Shown here: piece by piece, positions 3,995-17,185 of the stretch
Layout: every line of letters begins with the position of its first letter
Numbering within the stretch: position 1 is the stretch's first letter
DNA from: Catajapyx aquilonaris
Taxonomy: Eukaryota
Length of the DNA: 20,000 bases
Reading direction: 5' to 3'
Assembly: GCA_000934665.2 (NCBI GenBank)
Contig: KZ538373.1
Span: 56,854 to 76,853 of the forward strand
Position numbers and translations under genes: made by a program
Notes under the pieces: generated by a model
Told to the model about the DNA's origin: nothing
The model's input: the letters and a program-made list of their open reading frames with translations, nothing else
Databases searched by the model: none

Positions 3995-6900
3995 ATGGCA
4001 GGCAAAGGGCTGCCGAAGATGGTCACGGTGTATCTGGCTGAAGGAGGGCCTGGACCAAGCGGGATGCTGCCCAAATGCAGGGTCAAATGTAAGGGCTAAA
4101 GTTGGATATGGTCGGTGTGGGTGTAATAATTGGGGTGTTTTTCAGCGTTTGCTAACTTACCGAAGCACTTGCAGTCGGGTCGGAGGGATGAGGATGACAT
4201 CGCAATGGTGGATGACGTGGAGAATGATCCGGAGTACGAGCCAGAGGGTGAGCTGAAAGAAGTGTCGTCCGCAGGTTTGCAGCCGATTTGTGTGTTTTTA
4301 AGATTCAAAGTATTATAGCAGATACATTTTTTTCAGATGATTCGGACATCCCTGAAAATGACAGGCCTCGACAGAAAAGGCAGGACAACTCACCGGTGAA
4401 GAAGTCCGCAAGAATTGAGGCGAGACGAAGCTCCAGAGCTCCAAAGAGGAAAAAGCCCTTAACTGATGACGAAGATGACGATGACGATAAGGTTGTAAGT
4501 GACAGTTTGATAATTAAGTAGTCGCTTACAAGTCAGTAGCAATGTCAAAAGTTGAAACTATAGAGCTGATGTTCTCAAGCAAAATGTTCATCCAGATATG
4601 CCTGAATTATTTGTTGTTTAATCTTTAAAACATATTTCGTCTTTTTCAAAAAAAGAGAGATCAAAGTCGACATTTGCGTAAACGTCGTACGTGTAGGACG
4701 ACAGGCATGTCTGGGTTAGTAAACATTTTAGGACAATTGTTTTAAAGATTTGTACTATGTCCTCACTGAAGGCTGTGTCAAGTCCCTCAAGAAGGAAGTG
4801 GAGTATGGCGTGGGCACATTACCATGAAGTAAATAAGAATATTGCGAGGTGCAAGTACTGTCAGAAAATGATTTCATTCCGAACCACCCTCACAAACTTA
4901 AAGGCTCACATGATATCCCAGCATAAGGATGAATGGACGGCTGCGGAGCACGAATTGATAGAGGTTAGGCATACTTCTTTTAGGGAACCTCAGTGGGAGC
5001 ATGTACATTGTGGATAACTTACATTTGTACTCCCATTTTTTCTTGTCAGTCTCAGCGGATGAGTGTGGAGCCGGCGACTAGAAGGAAACGGAGCATTTTA
5101 TGGACCTATTTTCAACAAGTTGGTAATGGGACAGCCATCTGCAACTTGTGTGAAAAACGAGTCTCACACAAGACCACATCCTCGAACCTGAAGCGACACT
5201 TGCAGGTGAACCACCCAACCATCACTCTTGAGTCTGGAGGGAGATCCACGTGTGCATCAGAAGCTTCAGGGCATGAGATCAGACGAGAACGAAGCCCCGA
5301 GTATGATGAAGAGGAGCCAGATGCAGGTCAATGATTTTCATGTCATATAATATTTTACACATGGATATTTGTTATGTAGATGTCACGCTGTTGATTTGGT
5401 GAATTGAAGCATCATGTGATTTACTTGTCCAATAGAATCAATTGTGGAAGCGGAGTTTGATCCAGAGAATTCCCAGCAGCCAACCATCACGGCTTTCCAA
5501 GGGGACAGTGAAAATGGAAGCGATGAAATGCCAGATGAGGAGGTGAGAGGTCTTGTGGAAACATCACGATTTTAAATGCGCGGCATGTGCACATTAATTC
5601 CTTGCAGCAGTGAAGTGATTCCTGGTGTGTGCTTCTCTTCACAGATAATCCCAGACGTGAAGACACCAGCAAGTACAAAGAAGAAACGGAGCTCCCTGTG
5701 GGATCACTTTACATCCAAGGGAAACCGCATGGCCACTTGCAAACGCTGCTCGAAGCTAATCTCTTACAAGACCACAACCTCCAACATGAAGCACCATTTG
5801 AAGACGAAGCACCCCGAAGTTGACCTAGACTTATCACTTGTCTCAGCAGATAGCCAGCCTGCTGCTTCGTCTGCAGGAAACAGTGCTACAAAAAGAGTCA
5901 TCATCGCCACATCTTCAGTAATAAACCAGGTCAACAGGAAAAACATTGACCGCAGCCTGATGGAAATGTTCATAAAAAACAATCAACCTTTCTCACTGCT
6001 GAAGTCGGAGAATTTCATCAAGTTCACAATCTCGTTGAACCCAAACTACATTCCGCCATCCATGAAGCACATGACTAGAACAGTACTTCCTGCCCTGTAC
6101 AAAGAGTATGTCATACAGGTCAGGTCAAAGATGCTACAAGCCACAAGAGCTTGTGTGACGGCGGATTGCTGTGACGTCGGTACTGAACGTCTGATCAGCG
6201 TCATGGCACATTACAATGACGAGAGCTTGGAAACGCACCATGTGCTGCTCGAGTGTTCGGCATTGGGTGACTTTGAAGCATGTTTTGTTGTGGCTCGAAT
6301 CATGCAAGAGTGGGGATTAGACAGCAACACGGAGAGAAAGGCTTCCTTGCTGGTTACCGGTGCAGGCTTGGCTGGAGCCGAGATCAGCAACACAAGTCGG
6401 TTTGAGTGCCTGTCGTACCTGCTGGATGCAATTGTTGTGCATTCACTTGAACAGCATGCCAAGATACTGCTTGAGCAAATTAGAGCCATGGCAGACTATT
6501 TTGGGAAGAATCCGCTAGAAGAGCAGAAATCAAAGGTATGTTGGTTGTCTGAACAAGTCAAGAGTAACGAGTAATAATTCGGCACCTTGGTTGTTCCACA
6601 GGATGCGGATGTGAAACTGCTCACCCGAGATGTGGACACCCAGTGGCCCACGACCCTGCAGATGTTGCAACAGTTTGTGGAACTTGAGAACAGCATCAGA
6701 GCTGTGATTATATCAGTGTCTGAGACAGATTTTCAAGCAGCTCGTGAATTAATTGAGATCCTGATACCGTGGGAGGAAGTGTCTGAAAAGCTGAAGAGCG
6801 ATTACGTGTTGGGGGCAATGGTGGTCGTATACACAGAGGGTCTCCTGGACCACTGCAACGAGTTGAGCTGCAGACCCCGTGAAATTCTGTCAGCCACCGT

Positions 6901-7527
6901 CCTGGCCACGCTGACAGCGGAACTGAAGGCCTTGCTGAAAAATGTGGAAGACGAGGGCAGCCTAGGTCTGGCCACATTGCTGGATCCGAGGTTCAAGACA
7001 CTGGGATTTCAGGACAGCGGACATGCCCGGACCGTCAGGAGTCGCCTGGAGAAAATCCTGGTTGAGCAGGATCCAGGGAGAAGCGAGGCGTCACCTGTGA
7101 AGACGCCATTGCCAGGCCGACCCATCACAGGGCTATCCATCCTTTCCAAGTTCCTGGGAAAAGTGGATGCCACCAGGCCCACCGTCCTGCCGCAGTGTCG
7201 CGGGATTGTTGAGTTACAACGGTGGGTACAATGCAACGTAATCCCAGCAGAATGCTGAAGCCTTATTTCAAATCCCGTTTTCATTGCAGGTACCTGATCG
7301 AGCCCTGCCTGGACATGGAGGAGGACCCGCTCCAGTGGTGGCAGCAAAGCAGGGAGTCGTATCCGTTCCTGTCCAAGGTTGCAAAAGAGACACTCTGCGT
7401 ACAGGCTACCTGCATCCCTGCGCAGCTGGTGTTCACAAAGGCCAGGCGGCTGATTCGAGATTATTGCGGTGACCGCAGTTTGGAGAGGATGAAGTACATG
7501 TTGTTCTTGGATGCTCACATGGACTAA
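3995..7527 (+). CDS. Domesticated hAT-transposase-derived zinc-finger BED protein (ZBED-like; 3 BED fingers, inactive DDE core, hAT dimerisation domain). Proposed exons 3995-4088, 4146-4247 (alternative donor 4274), 4337-4494, [4697-4714 possible micro-exon], 4772-4963, 5050-5326, 5436-5542, 5645-6535, 6602-7221, 7290-7527
   Basis: Three BED fingers: WSMAWAHY..ARCKYC..TTLTNLKAHMISQH, RSILWTYF..AICNLC..TTSSNLKRHLQVNH and RSSLWDHF..ATCKRC..TTTSNMKHHLKTKH. hAT core: NQPFSLLKSENF..LNPNYIPPS, DVDTQWPTTLQML, ATLLDPRFK. C-terminal DPLQWWQQSRESYPFLSKVAKETLCVQAT. Splice phases are compatible at the proposed GT-AG junctions; the N-terminal exon linkage is less certain. Confidence 0.88.
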
Positions 7528-8074: not shown

Positions 8075-11000
8075 TTACACTCTGAGCCTGTCCATGTAAA
8101 TGGGCTTGGACTGCACTAGGTCTGAGTAAGTGGCCGAGAGATGTCTCAACTCCTGCAAAGCATAGTCTTCTGGGAGGGGCAGCTGTGCCAGCAGTTCTGC
8201 CCCGGGTAGGACCCCGCTTTGTTCGCCTGTCTCTCCGGCCAGTACGAACATGGCTCTGAGCACGTGAGCAAGGCGCTTGGCCATCTCCGCTTGACACAGG
8301 TGCTCCTTTGGGGTGTGCACCTTCATGGACATCACACGAGACACTAGGGAACCCAGCTTCGGCCCCAAGCGCGATGCCAGCCCTGGAGCGTCCTCTGATT
8401 TTGAAGCGACCATGTGCTCCACGGCTTCCAGCACCTGTCGTATTGAAAGAACTCATGAAAATATTTCTGGTTACATAACACCTCACCTGAATGCAATGCC
8501 ATTACCTGCAGATACTCCCAGAAGACGAGCCCTCCATTTGCCCACCCAGCCACTCGAGATGCATTTTGTGGGAGGGCCATTTTGTTCAGGAAAGCTGCCA
8601 GATGTGCACGGTTGTCCTGAACAACTGCGGATGGACCCACATGTGAAGTCAGGAGGTCGTGGCAGCGGGTCCAACGACCCGCCTTCAGCCAGAACCATGC
8701 TTCAAGCTCGGGGAGACCCAAAGATGATGCACGAGTCGCCTTTGCTTCGAAGATCCATTCGGCAGGGATGTGAAGCTCATGCTGTATATAACATGATGAT
8801 AATACAGGGTGGTTGCAAAGTTAGATTTCATTCAAACCTGCAAGAACTCCTCGATGTTTTCCTCCCCTTGTGTGGAAACATGCCTCCCAAGCAGGTCCCT
8901 CAAGATGGTGTCTCTTGCCGGGGAGGTTGGCAGGTGCAGAACCACAAACGCAGCCCACCACCACAAGCCAGAGGCCTCCAGCTGTGCAGCAAAGCTGCAG
9001 TGCAGGTTGGCTGCCTGATGGGCACCAATGTGGCCGTACCCAAGCGACATCAGGGCCTGGTGAAGATGCCAGCTGGTTCTGAAATCCACAGGGTCGCGGG
9101 TGTGTGTGTTGGGCTGCAGCATTGCCTGTACAGGGGATAAGGGTGGTCAGCTCTCACGACTTGCGACAAGCACCGCCGAGTCCTAACCTGCAGCGGATGT
9201 GACCTCTGCCCAAACAGCTTGAGCATGTGGAAGCACAGGTCATAGGGCATGGAGGGATCATGCTCGATTCCCTCCACCCCCAGATCTTCCTCCAGATGTG
9301 GCGGCAGGGGTGGCGTGGCGTAAATCCCGCAGTCCCACCCTGCCCCAACGTTGATCTCCTTTCTGAACGCACGCTCGTATTCTCTCAGCACAGCCGGGAG
9401 AGAGGAGGCTGGGGATGTGATATACCACAGATGCACTCCCAGGCACCGCTTCCAGTCCAGCCCTGCACAGGTGTTGACCTCCCCTCCGTAGGGGTGAGCT
9501 TCAACGGGATCGTCTGAGGTGAGGTACACCGGAATACCAGCGGCCAGGGCCAGTGTGCGGAGAGACTCCAGGGGCATGTGTCTGTCTGCCTGTGCCTCGG
9601 CCCATGTGCCCATCTGCTGCTGCACCAGGCGCTGGCTAGTCATGCTTGACGACTAATGGAAAAAAGCGTTCCAGTTAGCCTTCACTGTGTGATCATCTGT
9701 GTGTACACTCACCTGTGTGATTAGGAGTGCTGCTCTGTACCCTGCTTCTTCATCTACGTACTCACACCAATCCCTCAGCTGGTGTCCCGTCAGCTTGGCG
9801 CTCCTCCCTCTCCATCCTTCCTCCTCCACTTTTCTCCTGTCCTCCTCCACCTTCCCTTCCACCGCCCCTTCCAGCCAGTTCCCAACGCCTCTCTTCCTTG
9901 CCAGCATCCAGGCGTGAGTGTTGGGCCGCAACTTTTCAGGCTCTGGCACCTCCTTGCTCTGGTCTATGCGGCCCCACAACGCTTTTGCCAGGCCCCATGC
10001 CAAGTGGGAAGGGTCGGACTTGGGTGAATTTTGGGCAATGTCGTAGTGGGAGTGGATTGGGTCAGGGCCGTGCTTGGCCTTGAAAGGTTCGTCATTGTCT
10101 GGGTCGCGGCTGTCCACAGACAGGGACAGCTGAGCCTCCAAGTGCTGCTCCAAGCACTCATCTGATGAAACCTGCAGGGCGCATTTAATATCAATTATTT
10201 TGCTGGTTGAACCGAGTGAAAGTTAGCTCTTACCTGGAGCTTCATGATGTTGACCTCCAAGTTTGATCTGGAGGTGAGTGTCCAGCCTGCCCCCCATCCA
10301 ACCCTGAAAGCTCGTCCATGGAAAAGGGCTGCATCGGCCATCATGGCCTGCTTGCCTGCCAGCAACGTCTTGCTCAAAGGAATGTCATCATCGGCATGCT
10401 TTGGCGGAACCATCACTGGCTTCTCTAGTGGTAGAGGTGTTGGTAGGGGTGCTGTAGACTGCTTCGGGACTGAGGGTGCCATTGAGGTGGCTGCGAGGAA
10501 GGCAGGCAGGCGGGGAGCGGCAGAGAGCTCAGGCAGGCGCAACGAAGGTCGCTTGCAGACAGGCGACCCAGGAACAGACTGGTCCATTGTCTCTGACTCC
10601 ATATCTTCCTCGTCCGATTCGTCGGCAAAGAAGGATGCTTTCATCATCTGGATGTTGCGTCGCATGCTTGGAAGCACTTCCCCTGACCCGATGTGCTCCA
10701 TGCTCAGTTCCTTTTCCTGGACAAAAAATCCAAGCCATTAGTTCAGAATAATTACATCAAATTCCAAATGATTGAAGCGAACCTGTCTGCTGATTGGGCG
10801 GTCCTGGTCCTCCATGGCTTGATCCTCTTCTCCTATTGTATCCATGTGGTGCATAACCAAGTTCCCATTGACAGACGGTGACATGGAGGAAGGTACAGGT
10901 GGAGTTGGAAGTGGCTGGGGTGGCACAGGGGCAGCCGTGGCATCGCCCCCACCCTTTCTGGCAGGTGACAGCTGAGAAGGCTTTTTGAGAGGTGGTGGTC

Positions 11001-14000
11001 TCACCACTGCCACACTCCCATCTTCTTCCTCATCCTCCGCTGTAATTCCATACTTGGAAAAGTGCTTCACACGAAACACCCACGACCCAGTCTCAGGCCG
11101 GTATTCCACAAAGGTTGAGTTTAGCTTCGCACAGGTACGCACCAGCTTTTCTTCATACCTGGAATCCAACAGTGGTTGTCACAAACCATTGGCTACACTA
11201 GAACACGCAATTCCACCAACTTACGCCATTGCCTCGAGCCTTTCTGGGTTTGTGATTGGCCTCTTTATGGTCTTGTCCATCGGCCAGACTCTGTCTAGAG
11301 TCACCTGAGCAGGCCTATTCAGTCCCTCCCCTTCAGGAGGTTTGTCCTGGTCATCTGGATACACCACAACTTCCTTCAAGCGAAGATGCACCAGCTTGTC
11401 CAGGTCCAGACCAGACACATCCAGTGGCCCATCGTAGTAAAGGCTGCCGTAACCCTGCCTCCCAATGGTGAAGTCCTCCACCAAGCAGGAGCCATCTTCA
11501 GGGTTGGTCAGCTCAGCAAGTTCCTCCAAGGATGGAATGGTGTAGTAGCCAGGGCGACGAAGAGTGATGCCGGCTGGGTGGACTGTGCTGGTTGGAGTTG
11601 CTCTGCCTGCGTTCATGGAAGGCTCTCCATCAATCCATGATTCCATATCACCTGTACATGACAAAAGTTTCAAGTTAGAAACAGGCCATTTCCAATGTGA
11701 CAGCCAATTGCTTACCACGTGATTCGTCAAGATCGTTGAAACCCAGCCTGCCGACCTCTCTGTGATCATCCGTGCTCGAATCAGCAAGGGCCTGCCTGAG
11801 CTCCCGCTGCCTCTCCTTTGGCATGCCCAAGATGTCCCCTACTCCAGAATTCTCTCTGCTCCCAACTGGCCTGCCTTCTCTCTCGGGCAACCTGTTCCCT
11901 TCCCTGCTGTTCCCATTCTGAGCCACTACACTGTCACGATTCGGGGGCGACTGCTGGCTCTGTGGCCTAATTACCAGCCTCTTGACGCTGTGCTTTGGCA
12001 CAAAGATCTCTGCTCCACCAGGGGTAGAGGGGTCATCATCCTCACCAAATCCATCAAAGAGACCAGTGGAGGAGTTTGGAGTCAGCTGCACTGGGCGAGG
12101 CTTGATCTTCACAGTTATCCTGAGAATTGAAAAGACACTGATTGAAGTCACGAATAATTAACATACCACGTCCAAATACTGACCTTGGGGAGACCTTGTA
12201 CAGAGCCACGTCGTTAACTGCCTTCTGTGCAGTTGGATTAGTGGGCATGAGCACCTCTTCTCTCCTCCCGCTGGCAGTAACCCCTCTGAACAGTGGGGAA
12301 TCTCCAAACGGACTTGAGGCCAGTGCCAGTATCTGCTGCTGAGCCGAAGACGACGCTTCCTGGATCCCCACAGTGCCCAAGGTGCCTCCTCCCAATCCAC
12401 CGCCTCCCAAACTGCTCATGCCTCCACCCAAGGTAGACCCAAATCCCCCCATCAGTCCCCCACCACTCAGAGATCCTCCTCCCAGGGTGCTTCCCGAGCT
12501 GAAGCCAGACCCAAACATCATCCCCGTCTTGTTGCCTCCAGCTGAGAACATGGTCCCACCACCAAGCCCAGTGCTACCAGTGGCAGGCGTCTGACCAAAG
12601 CTGAATCCGCCAGAGCCGAGCCCTGGGGCCTTGGCAGGCTGGCTGAAGAACGTGGAGGCTGGGGCAGAGGCACCGAAGGTCAGGCCTCCTGTGCCTCCGA
12701 GACCGGGAGCAGTGGAAGAAGTGGTGCCAAAGGAGCCGAAGGGCTGGGTCTTCTGACCAAACAGACTCTGAGTGGTGCCTGGCTGCGTTGCCTGATTGAA
12801 ACCCGGCAGCCTTGTGGAAAGGAAGAAACAATAAATTAGCATTGTCATACTACACGCTGATATACCACAGGGATACGAAGAATCTCAATTAATGCAACAC
12901 TGTGCCGAAATCAATAATACTGCTGCCCGTATTACTACATGAATATGTTCACAGCACAATCTTGCAAGTGGGCAATCTTTTGGCACAAAAAAAAAACCAA
13001 CGGCAGGATCAAACTTGAACAATAACCGTTGACGTTGACGTTTCAACTTGTGAAACATCTTCCGCTGCCATGCCTGCTTCATCATCCTTCCCTTGCACTC
13101 CAAGAGCAGGAGTAAAGCATCTGCTCCTGAAGCTATCCTACATCCCACATATTGTGTTCAATGTTGAAACCACGGTAATGCATTATAAGCAAACTCACCC
13201 AGTGGAACCAGGCAGGGTGGATCCAAAGTTGGTCTTTGGCGCGTTGAAGAGGCCGATCTGTTGCTGCTGCTGCCCCTGCTGCTGCTGCCCTTGGGTGCTG
13301 CCAAACACGCCAAACCCTGCCCCTGGAGCCACGGTGTTGCCGGGAACCGTCCCTGTGCCAAATGCGCTCGTCCCCTGCTGGGGGGTGCTCCCAAAGAGGC
13401 CGCCGCCACTTTGAGGAGCAACCACTCCAAACGTCTTGTTGGGTTGGGCACCAAACAAGCCTGTTGCGAAGAGAAGAATTAAATTCAACCTGTTACGCTA
13501 CTGATAAGTTGGACATTTACCTCCCGCGGTACTGAAACCAGTGGTGGTGGATGTAGCGGCTGGGTTCCCAAACACCGTGGGTGCCTTGCCGAAGAATCCC
13601 CCAGTCGCAGCCCCAGCAGCAGTCCCAGTGTTCTGCGCCTGATTAAAAAAGCCTGTTCCGAAGCCAGTCTGGGCAGTGCCAAACATAGACTTGTTCTGTG
13701 GGGCCCCAAACAAGCCTGACGTACTGACAGTGGCTGGGGTGGGGCCTGTGGCAGCCCCAGTGCCGAACAAGCCCCCTCCAGCCTGGGCAGCACCAGGAGT
13801 GAATATGGTGGCCGCCTGCCCTGGGACCTGCTGACCCTTGCGGTTGGCACTGTAATCCTCCATCCGCAGCTCCTCCAGGCTCTTAGTGTCATACTCCTTC
13901 ATGCACGTGATGCACTGATGCCGGGTGCTGATATTGTGAGACTGCCCATTTTTCATCATGGTATCTGTTCCGGTGGGTGGATTGAATTTGACTGTGGTGC

Positions 14001-14643
14001 CCACCAGGGCCCCAGTCGTCCCAAATGCAGTCGTGCCAAACAGGTTGGTCGTCCCAGGGGAAGCCACCACCGATGGCTGCCCAAAGAGGGACTGTGCCGT
14101 GGACTGCACTTGCTGTTGGCCCACCACCGGCTGGGCTGCATTTTGGGCACCAAAGAAGCCACTTGTGTTCCCTACGCCAGTCCCAAAACCACTGGTGCCT
14201 GGGGCAGCTCCAAACGCAGTCTTGGTCTGCCCAAATGTGGAGGTCGATGCTCCAAACAGGTTGCCTCCAGACACCTGGTTAATGAAGTCCACAAAATGAT
14301 TAACATGCAAGGCCTGACAATCTTGAGAAATGGGAAGTACTCTGACCTGTGGGGTTTGACTAAATGGCGATGCCGTGGAAGTGGTGGCAGTGGCCCCAAA
14401 CCCAAATCGAGGGACATTTGCCTGGCCAAATCCAGTGGATCCAAACAGTGGCGCTGCCGTCGCTGTGCCTGCAGTGCCAAACAAGGAGGGTGTTTGGTTG
14501 CCAAAAGACTGTGAGCCAAAGCTGGGTGTCGGAGCCTTGTTGCCAAACGCAGTCTGCCCAAAAGGATTGGCTGCTGTGGCATTCACATCATTGAAGCTGA
14601 ATGATGTTCCTGGCATGCCAAAGGTTTTGTTTTGCCCAAACAT
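8075..14643 (-). CDS. Nup98-96: Nuclear pore complex protein Nup98-Nup96 precursor; coding exons 14643-14347, 14274-13521, 13460-13199, 12810-12184, 12119-11716, 11651-11225, 11158-10783, 10716-10234, 10171-9713, 9652-9188, 9125-8838, 8781-8506, 8434-8075 (5478 nt, ~1825 aa)
   Basis: N-terminal FG/GLFG repeats. GLEBS motif [61 protein letters not shown]. Autoprotease domain [21 protein letters not shown]...[24 protein letters not shown]...[19 protein letters not shown]. Nup96 motifs [54 protein letters not shown]. All introns are GT-AG and the summed exon length is divisible by 3. Confidence 0.97.
11056..11064 (-). other. HF|S autoproteolytic cleavage site separating Nup98 and Nup96
   Basis: Minus-strand codons CAC TTT TCC (His-Phe-Ser) within [10 protein letters not shown], the conserved self-cleavage motif of Nup98-96/Nup145. 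Confidence 0.95.
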
Positions 14644-15056
14644 GCTGAGGAAAAAATATGGTTATTATGTAACAGTATAACCTTCATGAAAGGTGATGGC
14701 AAATTTTTTTATTTGCATAATTATCACTTAAATTGACATCTGATTAAATTCTGATAGCATCTTGCGGCAAACGGGGCAGTACAATGGGAAATCATGATGG
14801 GGCCTTTGAAGTTTTATGAAAATAATGTTCATGACCAATATGCTACACAAAAAATCAGCCATCCTCGATGATTGTTGTGAAAATTTAAATAACAAATTAT
14901 GGCAGATTCCTAGCGCCCTCTGTGACCATTTAAAATGCAAACAAAATGAAAATTCACAACTTTGAAGCATAGGTTTTCACTACGAGAGAACAGACATCAC
15001 ACATTTTCATCTATTATTATTAGGAACTTGCAACAAAAATTATTGGGGGCCTCTCA

Positions 15057-15183
15057 AGGTGCGTTTACATGAGAGCGATGTCATCGCCGAGTGATAACAT
15101 TACTGAGTAACCAGTATTGTTGAAGGCAAATTAAACATTATTGGTCACTTAGCTCATCAAATTGCTCACATGTAAACCTCGCT
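15057..15183. mobile_element. PIF/Harbinger-type MITE (127 bp) in the Nup98-96 5'-UTR intron
   Basis: Imperfect TIRs AGGTGCGTTTACATGAGAGCGAT / ATTGCTCACATGTAAACCTCGCT, flanked by a 3-bp direct repeat TCA (15054-15056 and 15184-15186). Confidence 0.72.
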
Positions 15184-15669
15184 TCAATAGCGAAAAGAAA
15201 GACATCGAGTAAAACGTAGTTTGACAGGTCAGACAAAATCTGGGGCCGCACCTAAGTTTTGGGGATGGTGACTGGCTGTACATGACACGACCTTACGTAA
15301 GATGACTGTGACAGCAAGACTGGTAGTTGTGATAGGCCAAAACCGTAAGGTAGTGCGGTTCAACCACTGCAATCTAATCTGTATTGTTTGACCTCACCTG
15401 TTGTATCAACATGGCTAACTAGCTTACCACTGTACACCCAGCACTGCCCAATCTGAAGGGCAAATCACCAAAATTGGTCTGACCCTCAATTATTTATTAT
15501 AAACACTTGTGTAATGTTTGCACAATGAGTTGAAATCAGGCGCAACATTGTCTGATAATCCGGATAGATCAAGGCAAGTGTACCTGCGGCCTGTTCCTGT
15601 CCCGCAGTGGGTGGTGCAAGGCCAGGGTGCCCGAGGGTCTCCGGCTCAACAGCAGCAGAGGAGGACCAC

Positions 15670-15980
15670 CACGGGCAACATGGCTATACTTCCCCCGCAA
15701 TAAACATGGCGGACAAGGAAGACCACCGCGAACACTACTTCCCTCTGCAGCCACCAGAGAGGCGCTCCGACCCCATTGGCAATAATGCCAATCAGAATTT
15801 AATCAGACTATTTAAATCTAGACGTAATTAATACACAGGTTGTAACTAGTGTGGAATTTAAATCATATTCGGCAGCCATCTTGGAGCTCCAGCCAATCAC
15901 AATATAGAGCTCCGAGTTCAGCCAATCAGATCGGAAGTCATGACCGTTGCAATTCAAGTTTGAACTTGTCAGAAATTCAG
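15670..15980. promoter_or_regulatory. Bidirectional Pol II-type promoter for Nup98-96 (minus) and the candidate telomerase RNA (plus)
   Basis: CCAAT boxes: ATTGGC 15775-15780, GCCAATCAG 15787-15795, AGCCAATCAC 15891-15900, AGCCAATCAG 15920-15929. YY1-type motifs: AACATGGC 15677-15684, AAACATGGCGG 15702-15712 and the opposite-strand GCCATCTT 15875-15882. ETS-like CGGAAGT 15932-15938. Inr-like TCAGAA with its A at 15979. The Nup98 ATG exon starts with a splice acceptor at 14645-14646, so an upstream non-coding exon is required. Confidence 0.7.
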
Positions 15981-16445
15981 AAGGGCTTCGGAGTTGGTGG
16001 CGGGAGGACGTGGCCTCGGGTCACCTCCTCCTCCTCTGAGAGGGGGTCGGGGGTGCCAGACCAGGGGCCGCCCTACCTGCCACGGGCACTAACCTAACCT
16101 AGGTGTCGTGGCTGGCTTCGGGAGATCTTTGGCCACTTGGAGCCTCGCTCCTCCTCAATTCAAAGATCTCCCCTGGGCTTGGTTGCCCTTCTTTTGGATC
16201 CAGTTTGGGCTTGGTTCGGTCAGGGATGATGCCCGCTGGGGTTCTTGAAAAAGCACCAGGCTGACCTTCGTGGTCGGCTGGGCAAGGACACCCCTGGAGG
16301 CGACCTGACCTCTCTCCCGCAGTGGCTGGAGGAGCATCACTGCGGGGGAAGGAACCAAGTCGGATCCTACAGAAAAATTGTGCAGGGTGCAGGGTCGTGG
16401 TGCACCAATCTAGCCCATGGCCCGGCCCACTAAGCACAGACACAC
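15979..16445 (+). ncRNA. TERC: Candidate telomerase RNA (TTAGG template, pseudoknot, box H/ACA), ~467 nt
   Basis: Template CTAACCTAACCTA 16089-16101 (complement of TTAGG repeats). Boundary helix GTGCC 16053-16057 / GGCAC 16085-16089. Pseudoknot: P2 GTGGCT 16108-16113 / GGCCAC 16131-16136 crossed by P3 GGGAGATCTTT 16120-16130 / AAAGATCTCCC 16162-16172. P1 AGAAGGGC 15979-15986 / GCCCTTCT 16185-16192. Long arm closed by GGATCC 16196-16201 / 16362-16367. H box ANANNA (AGAAAA 16371-16376). 3' hairpin TTGTGC 16378-16383 / GCACAG 16434-16439, then ACA at 16440-16442. Confidence 0.82.
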
Positions 16446-16689
16446 CCATATTTTTTACAATATAAGATGTGATTGAAAATATTGCTGAAAATCTAGTCTT
16501 TTCCAGGTTGCCAAAGATGTACGGCCTGTAGCGACACATGCAGCGTATCGATGCCAGCAGTTCAAAACAAGCATTGTTCATTGTTGTCTCTTAAAAAGTA
16601 GAGTTGCTCTCCATTATTTTTGTCTTTGCTGGTGGTCCAAGCAAATAAAAAGAATAAACAATAGCAAAATTATTAGAAAGTCAAGTTTG

Positions 16690-17185
16690 AACATGCCCCA
16701 CAAGTACACCTGCATGTTCACTGTAAGAGTACCATAATTGTCTGAACTTGGAGGTGTACTTGGATACCTTCACCTCATCAGACCTGGTGCCTCTCTGAAT
16801 GACATGTTGAGTTTGACGGAAATCACCCAACATGACACCTGCGACACCTCCCATGACGCTGTCAGAATCTTGCACATCCTGCAGTGTTCTGTTCCGAGCT
16901 TCCACTTCTCCCTTGTGAGTCATAGTGCAATCATCCCAGATTATGATGCTGCAGTCTTGCAAAACTTTGGGCTCATGTGTCCGCTTCACGATGTTGCAAA
17001 CGGTGCTCTCGGCATACCCCAGATTAAAAGGCAATTTGAAGGCAGAGTGACCAGTGCGACAGGCTTGCAGCAGGGTGGCGGCAATTTCCGAGGAGGCAAT
17101 GGCAATGGTTAGTTCCCCAGATCGAATTCTTGCCAGCAGGATATTGGGTATAAATATTCTGACAGTTTTCTAGCATCTGGGACAA
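16690..17185 (-). mobile_element. Decayed Helitron Rep/Hel fragment (Pif1-family helicase domain)
   Basis: The minus-strand frame reads ILLARIRSGELTIAIASSEIAATLLQACRTGHSAFKLPFNL...CNIVK...KVLQDCSIIIWDDCTMTHKGEVEARNRTLQDVQDSDSVMGGVAGVMLGDFRQTQHVIQRGTRSDEV. This matches Helitron helicase motifs (ASSGIAATLL..GRTAHS..KLPL, IIWDECTM.H, GDFRQ.LPV). Walker A is degenerate and frameshifted (~17150-17180), and Walker B DE has become DD. Confidence 0.88.

Follow-up and report, generated by a model that had tools for sequence, protein, structure and literature searches.

The question raised by this locus is whether 140 bases flagged within a 20,000-nt stretch of DNA (the window, which is the whole stretch that was analysed) form part of a telomerase RNA gene. 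The original prediction, made from the letters of the sequence, was of a template, a boundary helix and an H-type pseudoknot. All of its coordinates and complementarities were confirmed on the sequence, and the region very probably represents the core, with template and pseudoknot, of a telomerase RNA; around it lie the other parts of an animal-type layout (P1, the three-way junction, the H box, the 3' hairpin and ACA). The flagged bases are part of a larger unit of ~467 nt and not a stand-alone motif. The unit at 15979-16445 is probably a real telomerase RNA gene. With less assurance, though still favoured, it is a gene of the ancestral animal box H/ACA type, with the P2/P3 knot of the original prediction, from an arthropod branching beside the insects. 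What was observed here comprises complementarities in the sequence, stability in silico, partial coverage by RNA and an arthropod affinity of the neighbouring genes.

Extent and folding of the candidate unit

The unit differs in composition from its surroundings, with a GC content of 0.615 in 15979-16445 vs 0.447 upstream and 0.363 downstream, and its nested minimum free energy (MFE) fold has an energy of -243.8 kcal/mol. The interval 16040-16440 had a folding z of -5.05, and 0 of 100 shuffles folded as well. When 132 segments of 300 nt were ranked by over-folding, ranks 2 and 4 (z of -7.39 and -4.61) fell within the unit, which is the most over-folded place in the 20-kb window, one long inverted repeat excepted. 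The order of the elements in silico is canonical and their spacing tight: P1, a template-adjacent hairpin, the template, P2/P3, a 3-nt linker, P4/P5 with a three-way junction, the H box, a 60-nt hairpin and ACA (Table 1). A core-enclosing helix was found in silico in the form of P1, whose 8 Watson-Crick pairs had probabilities of 0.70-1.0. A coding reading of the unit was dropped, since the open reading frames across it, 16099-16581 (-) and 15849-16097 (+), had no Pfam family at E values up to 0.1.

Table 1. Coordinates of the observed and predicted features (window numbering)
Feature	Position	Strand	Remarks
NUP98-96 5' untranslated exon	15584-15684	-	spliced to 14644
Intergenic region, NUP98 5' exon to RNA gene	15685-15978	.	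4 CCAAT/ATTGG boxes and duplicated GAGCTCC...AGCCAATCA unit
Candidate telomerase RNA gene	15979-16445	+	~467 nt; 5' end set solely by P1 helix, 3' end solely by ACA + 3
P1 5' strand AGAAGGGC	15979-15986	+	core-enclosing; pairs with 16185-16192
Long leader hairpin	15997-16083	+	base helix GUGGCGGG/CCUGCCAC, P1.1-like
GUGCC/GGCAC, boundary helix of the original prediction	16053-57/16085-89	+	complementary, probability 0.0
Template CUAACCUAACCUA	16089-16101	+	13 nt, complementary to 2.6 TTAGG repeats
P2 5' strand GUGGCU	16108-16113	+	pairs with 16131-36
Loop J2/3 GGCUUC	16114-16119	+	U-poor, 2/6 U
P3 5' strand	16120-16132	+	11 nt in knot model, 13 nt as plain hairpin
P2 3' strand GGCCAC	16131-16136	+	overlaps 2-pair extension of P3
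Mini hairpin GGAGC-CUC-GCUCC	16139-16151	+	inside pseudoknot, P2.1-like
P3 3' strand (AAAGAUCUCCC plus UC)	16160-16172	+	
P1 3' strand GCCCUUCU	16185-16192	+	pairs with 15979-15986
RNA-derived run X5 coverage	16193-16536		one 344-nt contig; strand not given by contig
5' hairpin of H/ACA domain	16196-16367	+	P4, P5, tight three-way junction; subdomain MFE -96.6 kcal/mol
P4 GGAUCC/GGAUCC	16196-201/16362-67	+	probability 0.99-1.0
P5 GGCUUGGUUC/GAACCAAGUC	16208-17/16352-61	+	probability 0.99-1.0
Long arms of three-way junction	16218-16310 (UUCG loop); 16313-16349	+	
H box candidates ACAGAA/AGAAAA	16369-74/16371-76	+	ANANNA scan, 1 nt after P4
3' hairpin of H/ACA domain	16379-16438	+	-31.1 kcal/mol as subdomain
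ACA box plus 3 nt	16440-16445 (ACA 16440-42)	+	predicted mature 3' end

Template and candidate boundary element

The repeat of the template is broken in the sequence by its flanking bases, A16088 and G16102, and TAACCTAACC, at 16090, is present as a single copy in the 20-kb window, between the leader hairpin and P2. Only 6 nt lie between the template and P2. In the plain nested ensemble, part of the template was paired (ACCUA/UAGGU).

The pairing of GUGCC with GGCAC had been proposed as a boundary helix closing immediately 5' of the template. The two strands are indeed complementary, but the boundary role was not sustained, as the helix had a probability of 0.0 and forcing it cost ~15-17 kcal/mol relative to the leader hairpin. 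The base helix of the leader hairpin had a probability of 0.99-1.0 in all ensembles and, because its base stops 5-6 nt 5' of the template, the folding models make this hairpin the leading candidate for the boundary element of the template. A helix just 5' of the template, as provided elsewhere by P1.1 or P1, was thus found in silico in the leader hairpin ending at 16083.

Predicted pseudoknot

The description of P3 as a perfect 11-bp pair was borne out: GGGAGATCTTT (16120-16130) and AAAGATCTCCC (16162-16172) are exact reverse complements of each other, their pairing has a probability of at least 0.98 in the nested ensemble, and the helix can be extended to 12 Watson-Crick pairs and one G.U (16120-16132/16160-16172). 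Such a pairing is not rare alone, as 7 inverted repeats with a length of 11 nt or more, their arms separated by no more than 80 nt, occur in the window. Within the models P3 is solid. The UUU/AAA junction is likewise present, with U16128-30 paired with A16162-64.

The originally proposed P2 (GTGGCT 16108-13/GGCCAC 16131-36) consists of 5 Watson-Crick pairs and 1 U.G, and its 3' strand follows immediately on the P3 5' strand. Two extensions of this helix had been suggested. That of CTAG with TTGG over a 5-nt bulge is complementary but unfavourable, costing +0.7 kcal/mol, and the alternative, AGGT with GCCT, is complementary as written. The probability of P2 depended on what else was allowed to pair, being 0.84-0.92 with the strands of P3 and the template both blocked from other pairings and 0.24-0.26 with P3 alone blocked, vs ~0.7 for a template-sequestering alternative. 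Shuffling of its flanks gave P2 by chance in 841 of 20,000 cases (4.2%; p ~0.04). An H-type pseudoknot 3' of the template is topologically possible, with 11-13 bp in P3 and 6 bp in P2. The best knot-forming stem pair in 16089-16192 had an energy of -25.9 kcal/mol vs -14.2 +/- 3.3 in shuffles, and none of 300 dinucleotide shuffles reached this value.

These analyses bear on the possibility, which we regard as unlikely, that the locus is a real telomerase RNA with a core folded otherwise, either with P3 as a plain 13-bp hairpin bearing the mini hairpin or with another functional P2. Candidates for the latter are CUAGGUG (16099-105) with CACUUGG (16134-40), and GGCA (16085-88) with UGUC (16104-07), which would loop out the template. 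In plain nested folding, P3 was a 13-bp hairpin in the MFE structure (probability at least 0.98) and P2 had a probability of 0.0. The top-scoring knot pair in the enumeration, at -25.9 kcal/mol, was P3 with CUAGGUG/CACUUGG, vs a sum of -24.8 for P3 with the P2 of the original prediction, and the presence of three copies of GUGGC and two of GCCAC provides several competing partners. The energy of the knot was estimated at ~ -97.9 plus the P3 stack, vs -111.2 for the best nested template-free fold; as modelled, the knot and the best nested fold with a free template are roughly equal, within error. Against a different fold, the CUAGGUG/CACUUGG pairing had a probability of 0.0 with the template blocked, when that of the P2 at 16108-13/16131-36 was 0.92, and it would bury 3 template bases, whereas this P2 leaves the whole template free besides directly adjoining P3. 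Furthermore, the available parts of two papers call the pseudoknot universal (PMC11892584) or a conserved feature of every animal telomerase RNA (PMC11892584; PMC8480181). The P2/P3 knot is the arrangement used in the proposal below.

The loop expected to supply triples had been described as U-poor, and GGCUUC (16114-19) does contain only 2 U among 6 bases. With this composition a run of U.A-U triples like that of human telomerase RNA is not possible, and no U-rich J2/3 was found. By analogy with Tetrahymena, as treated in the part of PMC5224487 available, no more than one or two triples can be envisaged, and the U-poor loop is less odd than was first supposed. The mini hairpin at 16139-16151 had a probability of 0.94-0.99; it resembles, and may be homologous to, P2.1 of insects.

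Predicted H/ACA domain

Downstream of the core, a tight three-way junction is predicted, formed by P5, the arm at 16218-16310 and the arm at 16313-16349. The third arm comprises 12+3 bp and is not a 4-bp P6.1, and no canonical P6.1 stem-loop was present in the predicted fold. A P6.1-like sequence, AGUUUGGGCU (16202-11), falls in the P4/P5 internal loop and a P5 strand of that fold.

The succession of hairpin, H box, hairpin and ACA, with the ACA three nt from the predicted 3' end, was found with both the motifs and the spacing of an H/ACA domain. A run of T6 is located at 16451-56, after the predicted 3' end. Transcription by polymerase III is the less likely reading, given an internal TTTT at 16192 and an RNA contig that reads through the T6 run.

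Phylogenetic affinity of the neighbouring genes

A tree of NUP98-96 proteins with 28 rows placed the protein encoded in the window inside the arthropods, beside the insects (splits of 99 and 100), and one with 15 rows grouped it with 5 insects (100). An AU test on the 15 rows under a simpler model rejected arthropods without this protein (p = 0.00027). The protein forms a long branch (1.43 and 1.02 in the trees), by which its position could be pulled. All 9 matches of the neighbouring importin-11 exon were to insects. No close relative was detected in an exhaustive representative protein search, in which identity was at most 49% and the best-scoring match had 42%; the named members among the 10 top clusters were a mix of coelacanth, fish, centipede, stick insect, thrips and tick. 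A protein search with the Nup96 exon gave 1 match, which was uninformative, and the ESM Atlas returned no usable match to the NUP98 domain. By these sequence comparisons, the neighbouring genes group the organism inside the arthropods, next to the insects. With an arthropod placement TTAGG is the expected telomere repeat, and this fits the template.

Transcription and candidate promoter region

Run X5, which covers the 3' part of the unit, is RNA-derived because it holds a spliced NUP98 contig. The X5 contig over the unit is strandless and extends 91 nt past the predicted 3' end; 15685-16192 is without X5 cover, and nothing is inferred from this gap. The NUP98-96 intron at 14645-15583 has GT..AG ends on the minus strand, and the NUP98 exon ends at 15684 or beyond. 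CCAAT/ATTGG boxes at 15775-79, 15788-92, 15893-97 and 15922-26 number 4, vs 0.79 expected in 330 nt from the window-wide total of 48. The region 15685-15978 is likely to be a shared divergent promoter, although the CCAAT boxes may serve NUP98 only.

Divergent promoters often yield upstream transcripts. It is accordingly conceivable, if improbable, that the unit is no telomerase RNA and that a GC-rich, structured transcript of the divergent NUP98 promoter, whether a lncRNA or an orphan RNA of the H/ACA sno/scaRNA kind, carries a telomere-like 13-mer by chance. The continuation of the X5 contig beyond the ACA is compatible with such a transcript, as are the Rfam searches: these gave 0 matches at gathering score, and at E values up to 10 gave no telomerase or relevant H/ACA family and only chance-level matches (5, 3 and 12), mostly to miRNA-precursor hairpins. 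RF00024 (Telomerase-vert) was absent even at E values up to 10, with no covariance-model match to it, and metagenome pattern scans for relatives returned 0 loci. By arithmetic, chance would place a given 10-mer, taken in any of its 5 phases, ~0.2 times in a 20-kb window when both strands are counted. The motif, however, is where a template belongs, as a single copy between a stable hairpin and knot-capable helices in a domain closed by an 8-bp helix, and it is of the repeat type of the clade indicated by the neighbouring genes. In addition, a branched 5' hairpin of 173 nt is typical of telomerase RNA and atypical for guide H/ACA RNAs.

A feature of the DNA itself or a repeat remnant with no RNA function, such as a palindrome around the AGATCT, CCTAGG and GGATCC sites or a mobile-element fragment, is a very unlikely explanation. 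A 6-bp palindrome can be read in each of P3, the template end and P4, and mobile-element remains are found nearby, in the form of a PIF1 helicase fragment (16681-17034) and high-depth short contigs (16872-16964). In run X1, however, the DNA depth over 15500-16774 is single-copy-like, and one contig with a depth of 35.5 spans 15500-17000. Neither the sharp composition boundaries nor the long-range helices P1, P4 and P5 are explained by a palindrome, and RNA-derived coverage of the locus exists. A telomerase RNA gene is the preferred reading.

Proposed working of the RNA

The gene would be transcribed away from NUP98-96, from a short CCAAT-rich divergent promoter. In the folded RNA, P1 (15979-86/16185-92) would close the core, and the leader hairpin (15997-16083), ending 5-6 nt before the template, would halt reverse transcription there. 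The chromosome end would align on the 3' part of the template CUAACCUAACCUA, and copying would run toward the 5' end of the template, adding TTAGG per round. P2 (16108-13/16131-36) and P3 (16120-30/16162-72) are proposed to stack as an H-type pseudoknot whose junction carries U-A pairs, and the small hairpin at 16139-51 would sit in the long loop of this knot. The three-way junction in 16196-16367 may offer TERT its second binding element. Dyskerin-type proteins, recruited by the H box, the 3' hairpin and ACA, would stabilise the RNA and set its 3' end near 16445. In protein-free RNA, the P2 5' strand is predicted to prefer pairing around the template, a behaviour also reported for the telomerase RNA of Tetrahymena.

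Comparison with known telomerase RNAs

Box H/ACA telomerase RNAs of mollusc, annelid, brachiopod, hemichordate and echinoderm were described by Logeswaran et al. in 2020 (PMC8480181); according to the parts of this paper that were available, two validated cases have 408 and 436 nt, and exhaustive searches of arthropods yielded no convincing telomerase RNA candidate. Work since then has reported only small RNAs that lack H/ACA, from four orders of holometabolous insects, and no description of an arthropod telomerase RNA of the H/ACA type was found in the literature searched. The candidate could, tentatively, be the first full-size arthropod telomerase RNA of the box H/ACA type, a living intermediate that combines the ancestral animal architecture with an insect-type core. 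If so, the ancestral type outlived the origin of both the arthropods and the TTAGG repeat, and the tiny RNAs of moths, beetles and wasps represent the same core from which the 3' domains were later lost, within the insects. The switch to a small telomerase RNA would then move inside the insects, and P2.1 would be an older pancrustacean trait rather than an insect invention. How, and at what point, the telomerase RNA of arthropods changed is posed as an open question in the literature. The candidate gives a sequence and structure model for covariance-model searches of crustaceans, myriapods, chelicerates and early insects, and the same model is usable for reconstitution tests of the roles of the lost domains.

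Human telomerase RNA has U-A pairs at the knot junction, and its gene has a CCAAT box ~55 nt before the start; the candidate resembles it in both respects, its own CCAAT box lying ~55 nt before the presumed start. The predicted core is also like that of human and other vertebrate telomerase RNAs in being closed by P1 and in the order of the knot, which runs from the P2 5' strand through a loop to the P3 5' strand abutting the P2 3' strand, and then through a long loop to the P3 3' strand. Unlike the vertebrate core, the candidate is without a U-rich J2b/3, a P2a/J2a-b region and a 4-bp P6.1; its mimic of the 5-nt bulge is energetically unfavourable, and its boundary is probably the template-adjacent hairpin and not P1.

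Comparison with the metazoan H/ACA telomerase RNAs was made by architecture, from the available text of PMC8480181. Shared features of the predicted structure are a template-pseudoknot core closed by P1, a template-adjacent hairpin as boundary element, and, between the core and the H/ACA domain, long stems carried by P4, followed by the H box, 3' hairpin and ACA, in a total of ~400-470 nt. The candidate differs in encoding TTAGG rather than TTAGGG, in the small hairpin inside the knot and in the U-poor J2/3.

The predicted knot resembles that of Tetrahymena, as far as the accessible portion of PMC5224487 describes it, in having a short loop over a long stem (3 nt and 8 bp there vs 6 nt and 11 bp in the candidate) and in the preference of the free RNA for another fold, with residues of the knot paired around the template. 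Unlike the candidate, the Tetrahymena RNA is a ciliate product of polymerase III with no H/ACA domain, and the likeness is one of behaviour only.

For insects, the sections available of PMC11892584 and PMC13023368 give lepidopteran and beetle telomerase RNA genes snRNA-type promoters, and beetle and moth RNAs a conserved core made up of a stem-loop within the knot plus a hairpin adjacent to the template. The moth sfTR has 135 nt and, in the part of PMC11892584 at hand, is without P1, CR4/5 and an H/ACA domain. In its predicted structure the candidate shares with the RNAs of Lepidoptera and Coleoptera, as presented in these excerpts, a TTAGG-type template, a short P2 and a stem-loop inside the pseudoknot (P2.1, its placement in insects being taken from the wording 'inner pseudoknot element'). 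A P1.1 hairpin shortly upstream of the template is a further shared element, at a distance of 4 nt in the moth and 5-6 nt in the candidate. Unlike the small insect RNAs so described, the candidate has in silico a P1, a three-way junction and an H/ACA layout, at ~467 nt, and is thus not of the reduced form.

Layout of the candidate H/ACA unit

The bases that the original prediction had read as a template, a boundary helix and an H-type pseudoknot (16053-16192) were found to lie within a candidate box H/ACA telomerase RNA gene of ~467 nt, and this gene around the flagged bases, beyond the core itself, is the larger result. The evidence comprises a single sequence, thermodynamic modeling, an RNA contig that covers part of the unit, and the clade to which the neighboring genes belong; from it, we consider it likely that the unit is a real telomerase RNA and somewhat better than an even bet that it is one together with the predicted P2/P3 knot.

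Features of the candidate telomerase RNA unit and the adjacent genes
Feature	Position	Strand	Basis
NUP98-96 gene	8075-14643 and exon 15584-15684	-	Pfam, solved-domain matches, X5 splice
Importin-11-like gene	left of NUP98-96		
Candidate unit	15979-16445	+	
P1	AGAAGGGC 15979-86 / GCCCUUCU 16185-92	+	probability 0.70-1.0
P4	GGAUCC 16196-201 / GGAUCC 16362-67	+	probability 0.99-1.0
P5	GGCUUGGUUC 16208-17 / GAACCAAGUC 16352-61	+	nested fold
Tight three-way junction	long arms 16218-16310 (UUCG loop) and 16313-16349	+	nested fold
H box candidates ACAGAA/AGAAAA	16369-76	+	fit ANANNA, one base after P4
3' hairpin, 60 nt	16379-16438	+	nested fold
ACA	16440-42	+	motif after 3' hairpin

The nested minimum for 15979-16445 was -243.8 kcal/mol, and the helices for which a probability is stated were near certainties in this fold. 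P1 closed a 214-nt domain and was separated from P4 by a 3-nt linker, while the inner 8 pairs of P5 (16210-17/16352-59) had a probability of 0.99 to 1.0. GC content was 0.615 within the unit, 0.447 in the preceding 300 nt and 0.363 in the following 300 nt. Folding of 16040-16440 gave a z of -5.05, with 0 of 100 shuffles being equally good. Over-folding was ranked along the + strand in overlapping windows of 300 nt, 132 in all; the two over the unit came 2nd (z -7.39) and 4th (z -4.61), and the 1st and 3rd places went to an inverted repeat in the importin-11-like gene region (2449-2622; 78-nt arms, 87% complementary, 18 nt apart). This repeat resembles a miniature inverted-repeat element and, at z -13.9, is more over-folded than any other spot in the window.

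A direct repeat of GGGCUUGGUU was present at 16175-16184, between P3 and P1, and at 16207-16216, where it forms the P5 5' strand; the first copy is a possible competitor for GAACCAAG (16352-59). At 16222-16266, a weak pattern resembling C/D boxes (AUGAUG ... CUGA) matched an archaeal C/D RNA family at chance level (11.9 bits, E = 2) and is probably meaningless.

Pairing of the predicted P2/P3 pseudoknot

All sequence statements of the original prediction were confirmed. A script check of the pairings found the P3 strand GGGAGATCTTT (16120-30) to be the exact reverse complement of AAAGATCTCCC (16162-72), and P2 (GTGGCT 16108-13/GGCCAC 16131-36) to consist of 5 Watson-Crick pairs and 1 U.G pair. 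The UUU/AAA junction was present as U16128-30 paired with A16162-64 at the P2-side end of P3, and the loop separating P2 and P3, GGCUUC, was U-poor as described. P3 had a probability of 0.98 or more in the nested fold and could be extended to 12 Watson-Crick pairs plus one G.U (16120-32/16160-72), using the two 5'-most bases of the P2 3' strand. As a telomerase core, the prediction stood with respect to its kind and P3, and probably P2; the P2 extension and the boundary helix were not favored.

Single elements, taken alone, were weak against chance: inverted repeats of 11 nt or more whose arms were separated by no more than 80 nt numbered 7 in the window, and shuffling the flanks produced a 6-bp helix abutting P3 841 times in 20000. 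In combination, they were no longer weak. Among knot-forming stem pairs in 16089-16192, the best score was -25.9 kcal/mol, a value attained by 0 of 300 dinucleotide shuffles (-14.2 +/- 3.3).

ViennaRNA does not fold knots, and the energy of the knot was bracketed by constrained nested folds of the 214-nt core. These gave -118.4 kcal/mol unconstrained, -111.2 when P1 and P3 were imposed and the template was held unpaired, and -97.9 when P1 and P2 were imposed and the P3 strands omitted. To the last of these values, and not counting any penalty for the knot itself, the P3 helix would add -16.3 kcal/mol as a duplex, or about -20 by stacking alone once we correct for duplex initiation. Within error, the knot is thus as stable as the best nested fold with a free template.

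When the P3 strands were blocked and no helix was imposed, P2 reached a probability of 0.24 to 0.26. A competing fold, in which CAC 16087-89 pairs with GUG 16108-10 and, within the template, ACCUA pairs with UAGGU, had 0.61 to 0.79. Additional blocking of the template raised P2 to 0.84 to 0.92 and left a rival register, CUAGGUG/CACUUGG, at 0.0. The template must likewise be kept from pairing in a working enzyme. In Tetrahymena, according to one study, the free full-length RNA forms no knot and template-side residues pair with knot residues, a behavior that its authors suggest is general (PMC5224487). On this precedent, we gave the template-pairing fold no weight for or against the knot. GUGGC occurs three times in the core (15997-16001, 16010-16014 and 16108-16112) and GCCAC twice (16079-16083 and 16132-16136), which gives mutually exclusive pairings at the leader hairpin base, in a template-enclosing hairpin and in P2; this network could act as a folding switch.

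The two predicted extensions of P2 were both complementary. CUAG/UUGG was not energetically favored, the energy changing from -7.7 to -7.0 kcal/mol across the GUGUC bulge. AGGU/GCCU gained 3.3 kcal/mol but competes with a very stable mini hairpin, GGAGC-CUC-GCUCC (16139-51; probability 0.94 to 0.96 in the nested fold), which the prediction did not mention and which lies within the knot, after the P2 3' strand and before the P3 3' strand. An inner stem-loop, P2.1, belongs to the core of moth and beetle telomerase RNAs, and the moth paper describes it as absent from other animal telomerase RNAs (PMC11892584; PMC13023368). An exact correspondence between the two hairpins is a lead rather than a result.

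GGCUUC, with its two U, rules out a run of U.A-U triples like that of the human RNA; where P3 ends in U-A pairs, one or two triples may form. The objection that six nucleotides cannot span an 11-bp stem was rejected as too strong; in Tetrahymena, a loop of 3 nt crosses 8 bp (PMC5224487).

Putative template and boundary element

TAACCTAACC occurred once within the 20-kb window. The longest telomere-repeat-like stretch, CUAACCUAACCUA (16089-16101), was complementary to 2.6 copies of five-base TTAGG and not to TTAGGG, the six-base repeat of vertebrates. TTAGG is called the ancestral arthropod repeat in two papers (PMC8480181; PMC11892584).

The predicted boundary helix, GUGCC/GGCAC, was complementary but had a probability of 0.0 in every ensemble, and forcing it cost 15 to 17 kcal/mol (-83.0 versus -97.9 and -93.8 versus -111.2), because 16053-57 forms part of an 87-nt leader hairpin (15997-16083). 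The base helix of this hairpin, GUGGCGGG/CCUGCCAC, stops at 16083, 5 to 6 nt before the template. The moth P1.1 is placed 4 nt upstream of the template (PMC11892584), and such a template-adjacent hairpin is described in two papers as the boundary element of most non-vertebrate animals (PMC8480181; PMC4993307). When the template was blocked, a short helix, GGCA 16085-88/UGUC 16104-07, also formed, so that the template became a loop flanked by the leader hairpin and P2. In these models both helices are candidates for setting the boundary.

Transcription and possible promoter region

The stretch was found in five sequencing runs, four of which are possibly source DNA, while X5 came from another sample and study. 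A 398-nt X5 contig linked 15584-15684 with 14615-14644, and the skipped segment (14645-15583) had GT..AG ends on the minus strand; the contig is therefore a spliced NUP98 messenger, with a 5' untranslated exon joined across a 939-nt intron, and X5 is RNA-derived. One 344-nt X5 contig spanned 16193-16536, indicating transcription of no less than the 3' two-thirds of the unit. This contig carries no strand information and extends 91 nt past the predicted 3' end; it may represent a precursor or a different transcript.

The first NUP98 exon ends at 15684 or beyond, leaving a gap of at most 295 bp to P1 that contains 4 CCAAT/ATTGG boxes versus 0.79 expected. A divergent promoter is the simplest reading, although the boxes may serve NUP98 alone. 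A GAGCTCC...AGCCAATCA unit is duplicated 29 bp apart in this intergenic region (15884-15930), and the downstream CCAAT (15922) lies ~57 nt ahead of the first P1 base. A T6 run (16451-16456) begins 6 nt beyond the predicted mature 3' end, a striking placement in light of the telomerase RNAs of Hymenoptera, which are polymerase III products. The X5 contig crosses this run, and an internal TTTT is present at 16192; T6 is therefore probably not a polymerase III terminator.

Neighboring genes

NUP98-96 was identified by Pfam (Nucleoporin2, 4.8e-31; Nup96, 9.8e-29) and by solved NUP98 domains (E = 3.4e-47). It is compact, with about 1800 codons in 6.6 kb and a few large exons; several adjacent same-frame ORFs are divided only by very short stop-containing gaps, probably introns of about 50 to 70 nt. 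Identity to named NUP98-96 proteins was at best 51 to 68% in the autoproteolytic domain and about 37 to 43% over all exons among the 45 best-scoring matches, and an exhaustive search of 1.84 billion representatives returned nothing above 49% for the Nup96 exon. These low identities indicated that the protein has no close relative on record. Top totals were 859 bits for cockroach, 858 for horseshoe crab, 836 for centipede and 800 for the best fish, and the named clusters in the Nup96-exon top ten were coelacanth, fish, centipede, stick insect, thrips and tick.

Trees were judged more telling than these lists. A 28-row tree (LG+C20) placed the protein between the insects and a group comprising myriapod, chelicerates, mollusc and vertebrates (splits 99 and 100), and a 15-row tree (LG+G4) placed it as sister to five insects (100), on long branches (1.43 and 1.02) and among rows without a crustacean. 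An AU test on the 15 rows, for a clade chosen after the first tree was seen, rejected nine named arthropods as a clade without this protein (lnL difference, 34.6; p = 0.00027). All 9 matches of the importin-11 exon were insect (42 to 55% identity). Our reading is that the neighboring genes are probably arthropod and would branch beside the sampled insects, a crustacean or an early hexapod being the simplest source.

Between the importin-11-like gene and NUP98-96, an ORF run on the + strand (4757-7527) contains a BED zinc finger (Pfam 3.3e-10), and N-termini of BED type recur along it; this is a ZBED/hAT-transposase-like gene, domesticated or decayed. A PIF1-like helicase fragment (16681-17034, minus strand; Pfam 8.3e-17) follows the candidate RNA gene by ~240 nt and contains an inverted repeat with 20-nt arms (16701-16762). 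At 16872-16964, the short DNA contigs from run X1 had depths of 39.5 and 161.7 versus 35.5 locally (1 to 5 times), indicating a dispersed repeat, perhaps a Helitron remnant.

Comparison with known telomerase RNAs

Rfam gave no match at the gathering score, and focused searches at E up to 10 gave 5, 3 and 12 matches, none to a telomerase family; the unit is therefore not a member of the vertebrate telomerase family model. Four core sequence strings had no match in the main text of the open-access literature, and no crustacean telomerase RNA appeared in the titles and abstract openings of the open-access papers listed on the subject. According to two papers, arthropod telomerase RNAs are reported only from Hymenoptera, Lepidoptera, Trichoptera and Coleoptera (PMC12133305; PMC13023368).

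Animal telomerase RNAs are described, in two papers, as a P1-closed template-pseudoknot core followed by P4 stems, H box, hairpin and ACA (PMC8480181; PMC4993307). The modeled unit would be alike in layout and working to the H/ACA telomerase RNAs of non-vertebrate animals, with an identical predicted order of elements, but differs from them in the repeat encoded, the U-poor loop, the inner hairpin and the lack of a short P6.1. It shares template type, a P1.1-like hairpin, a short P2 and an inner hairpin with the small insect telomerase RNAs and, unlike them, keeps P1, the three-way junction and the H/ACA layout. The modeled preference of its core for a template-pairing fold over P2 when the template is left unblocked is the same behavior as that of free Tetrahymena RNA.
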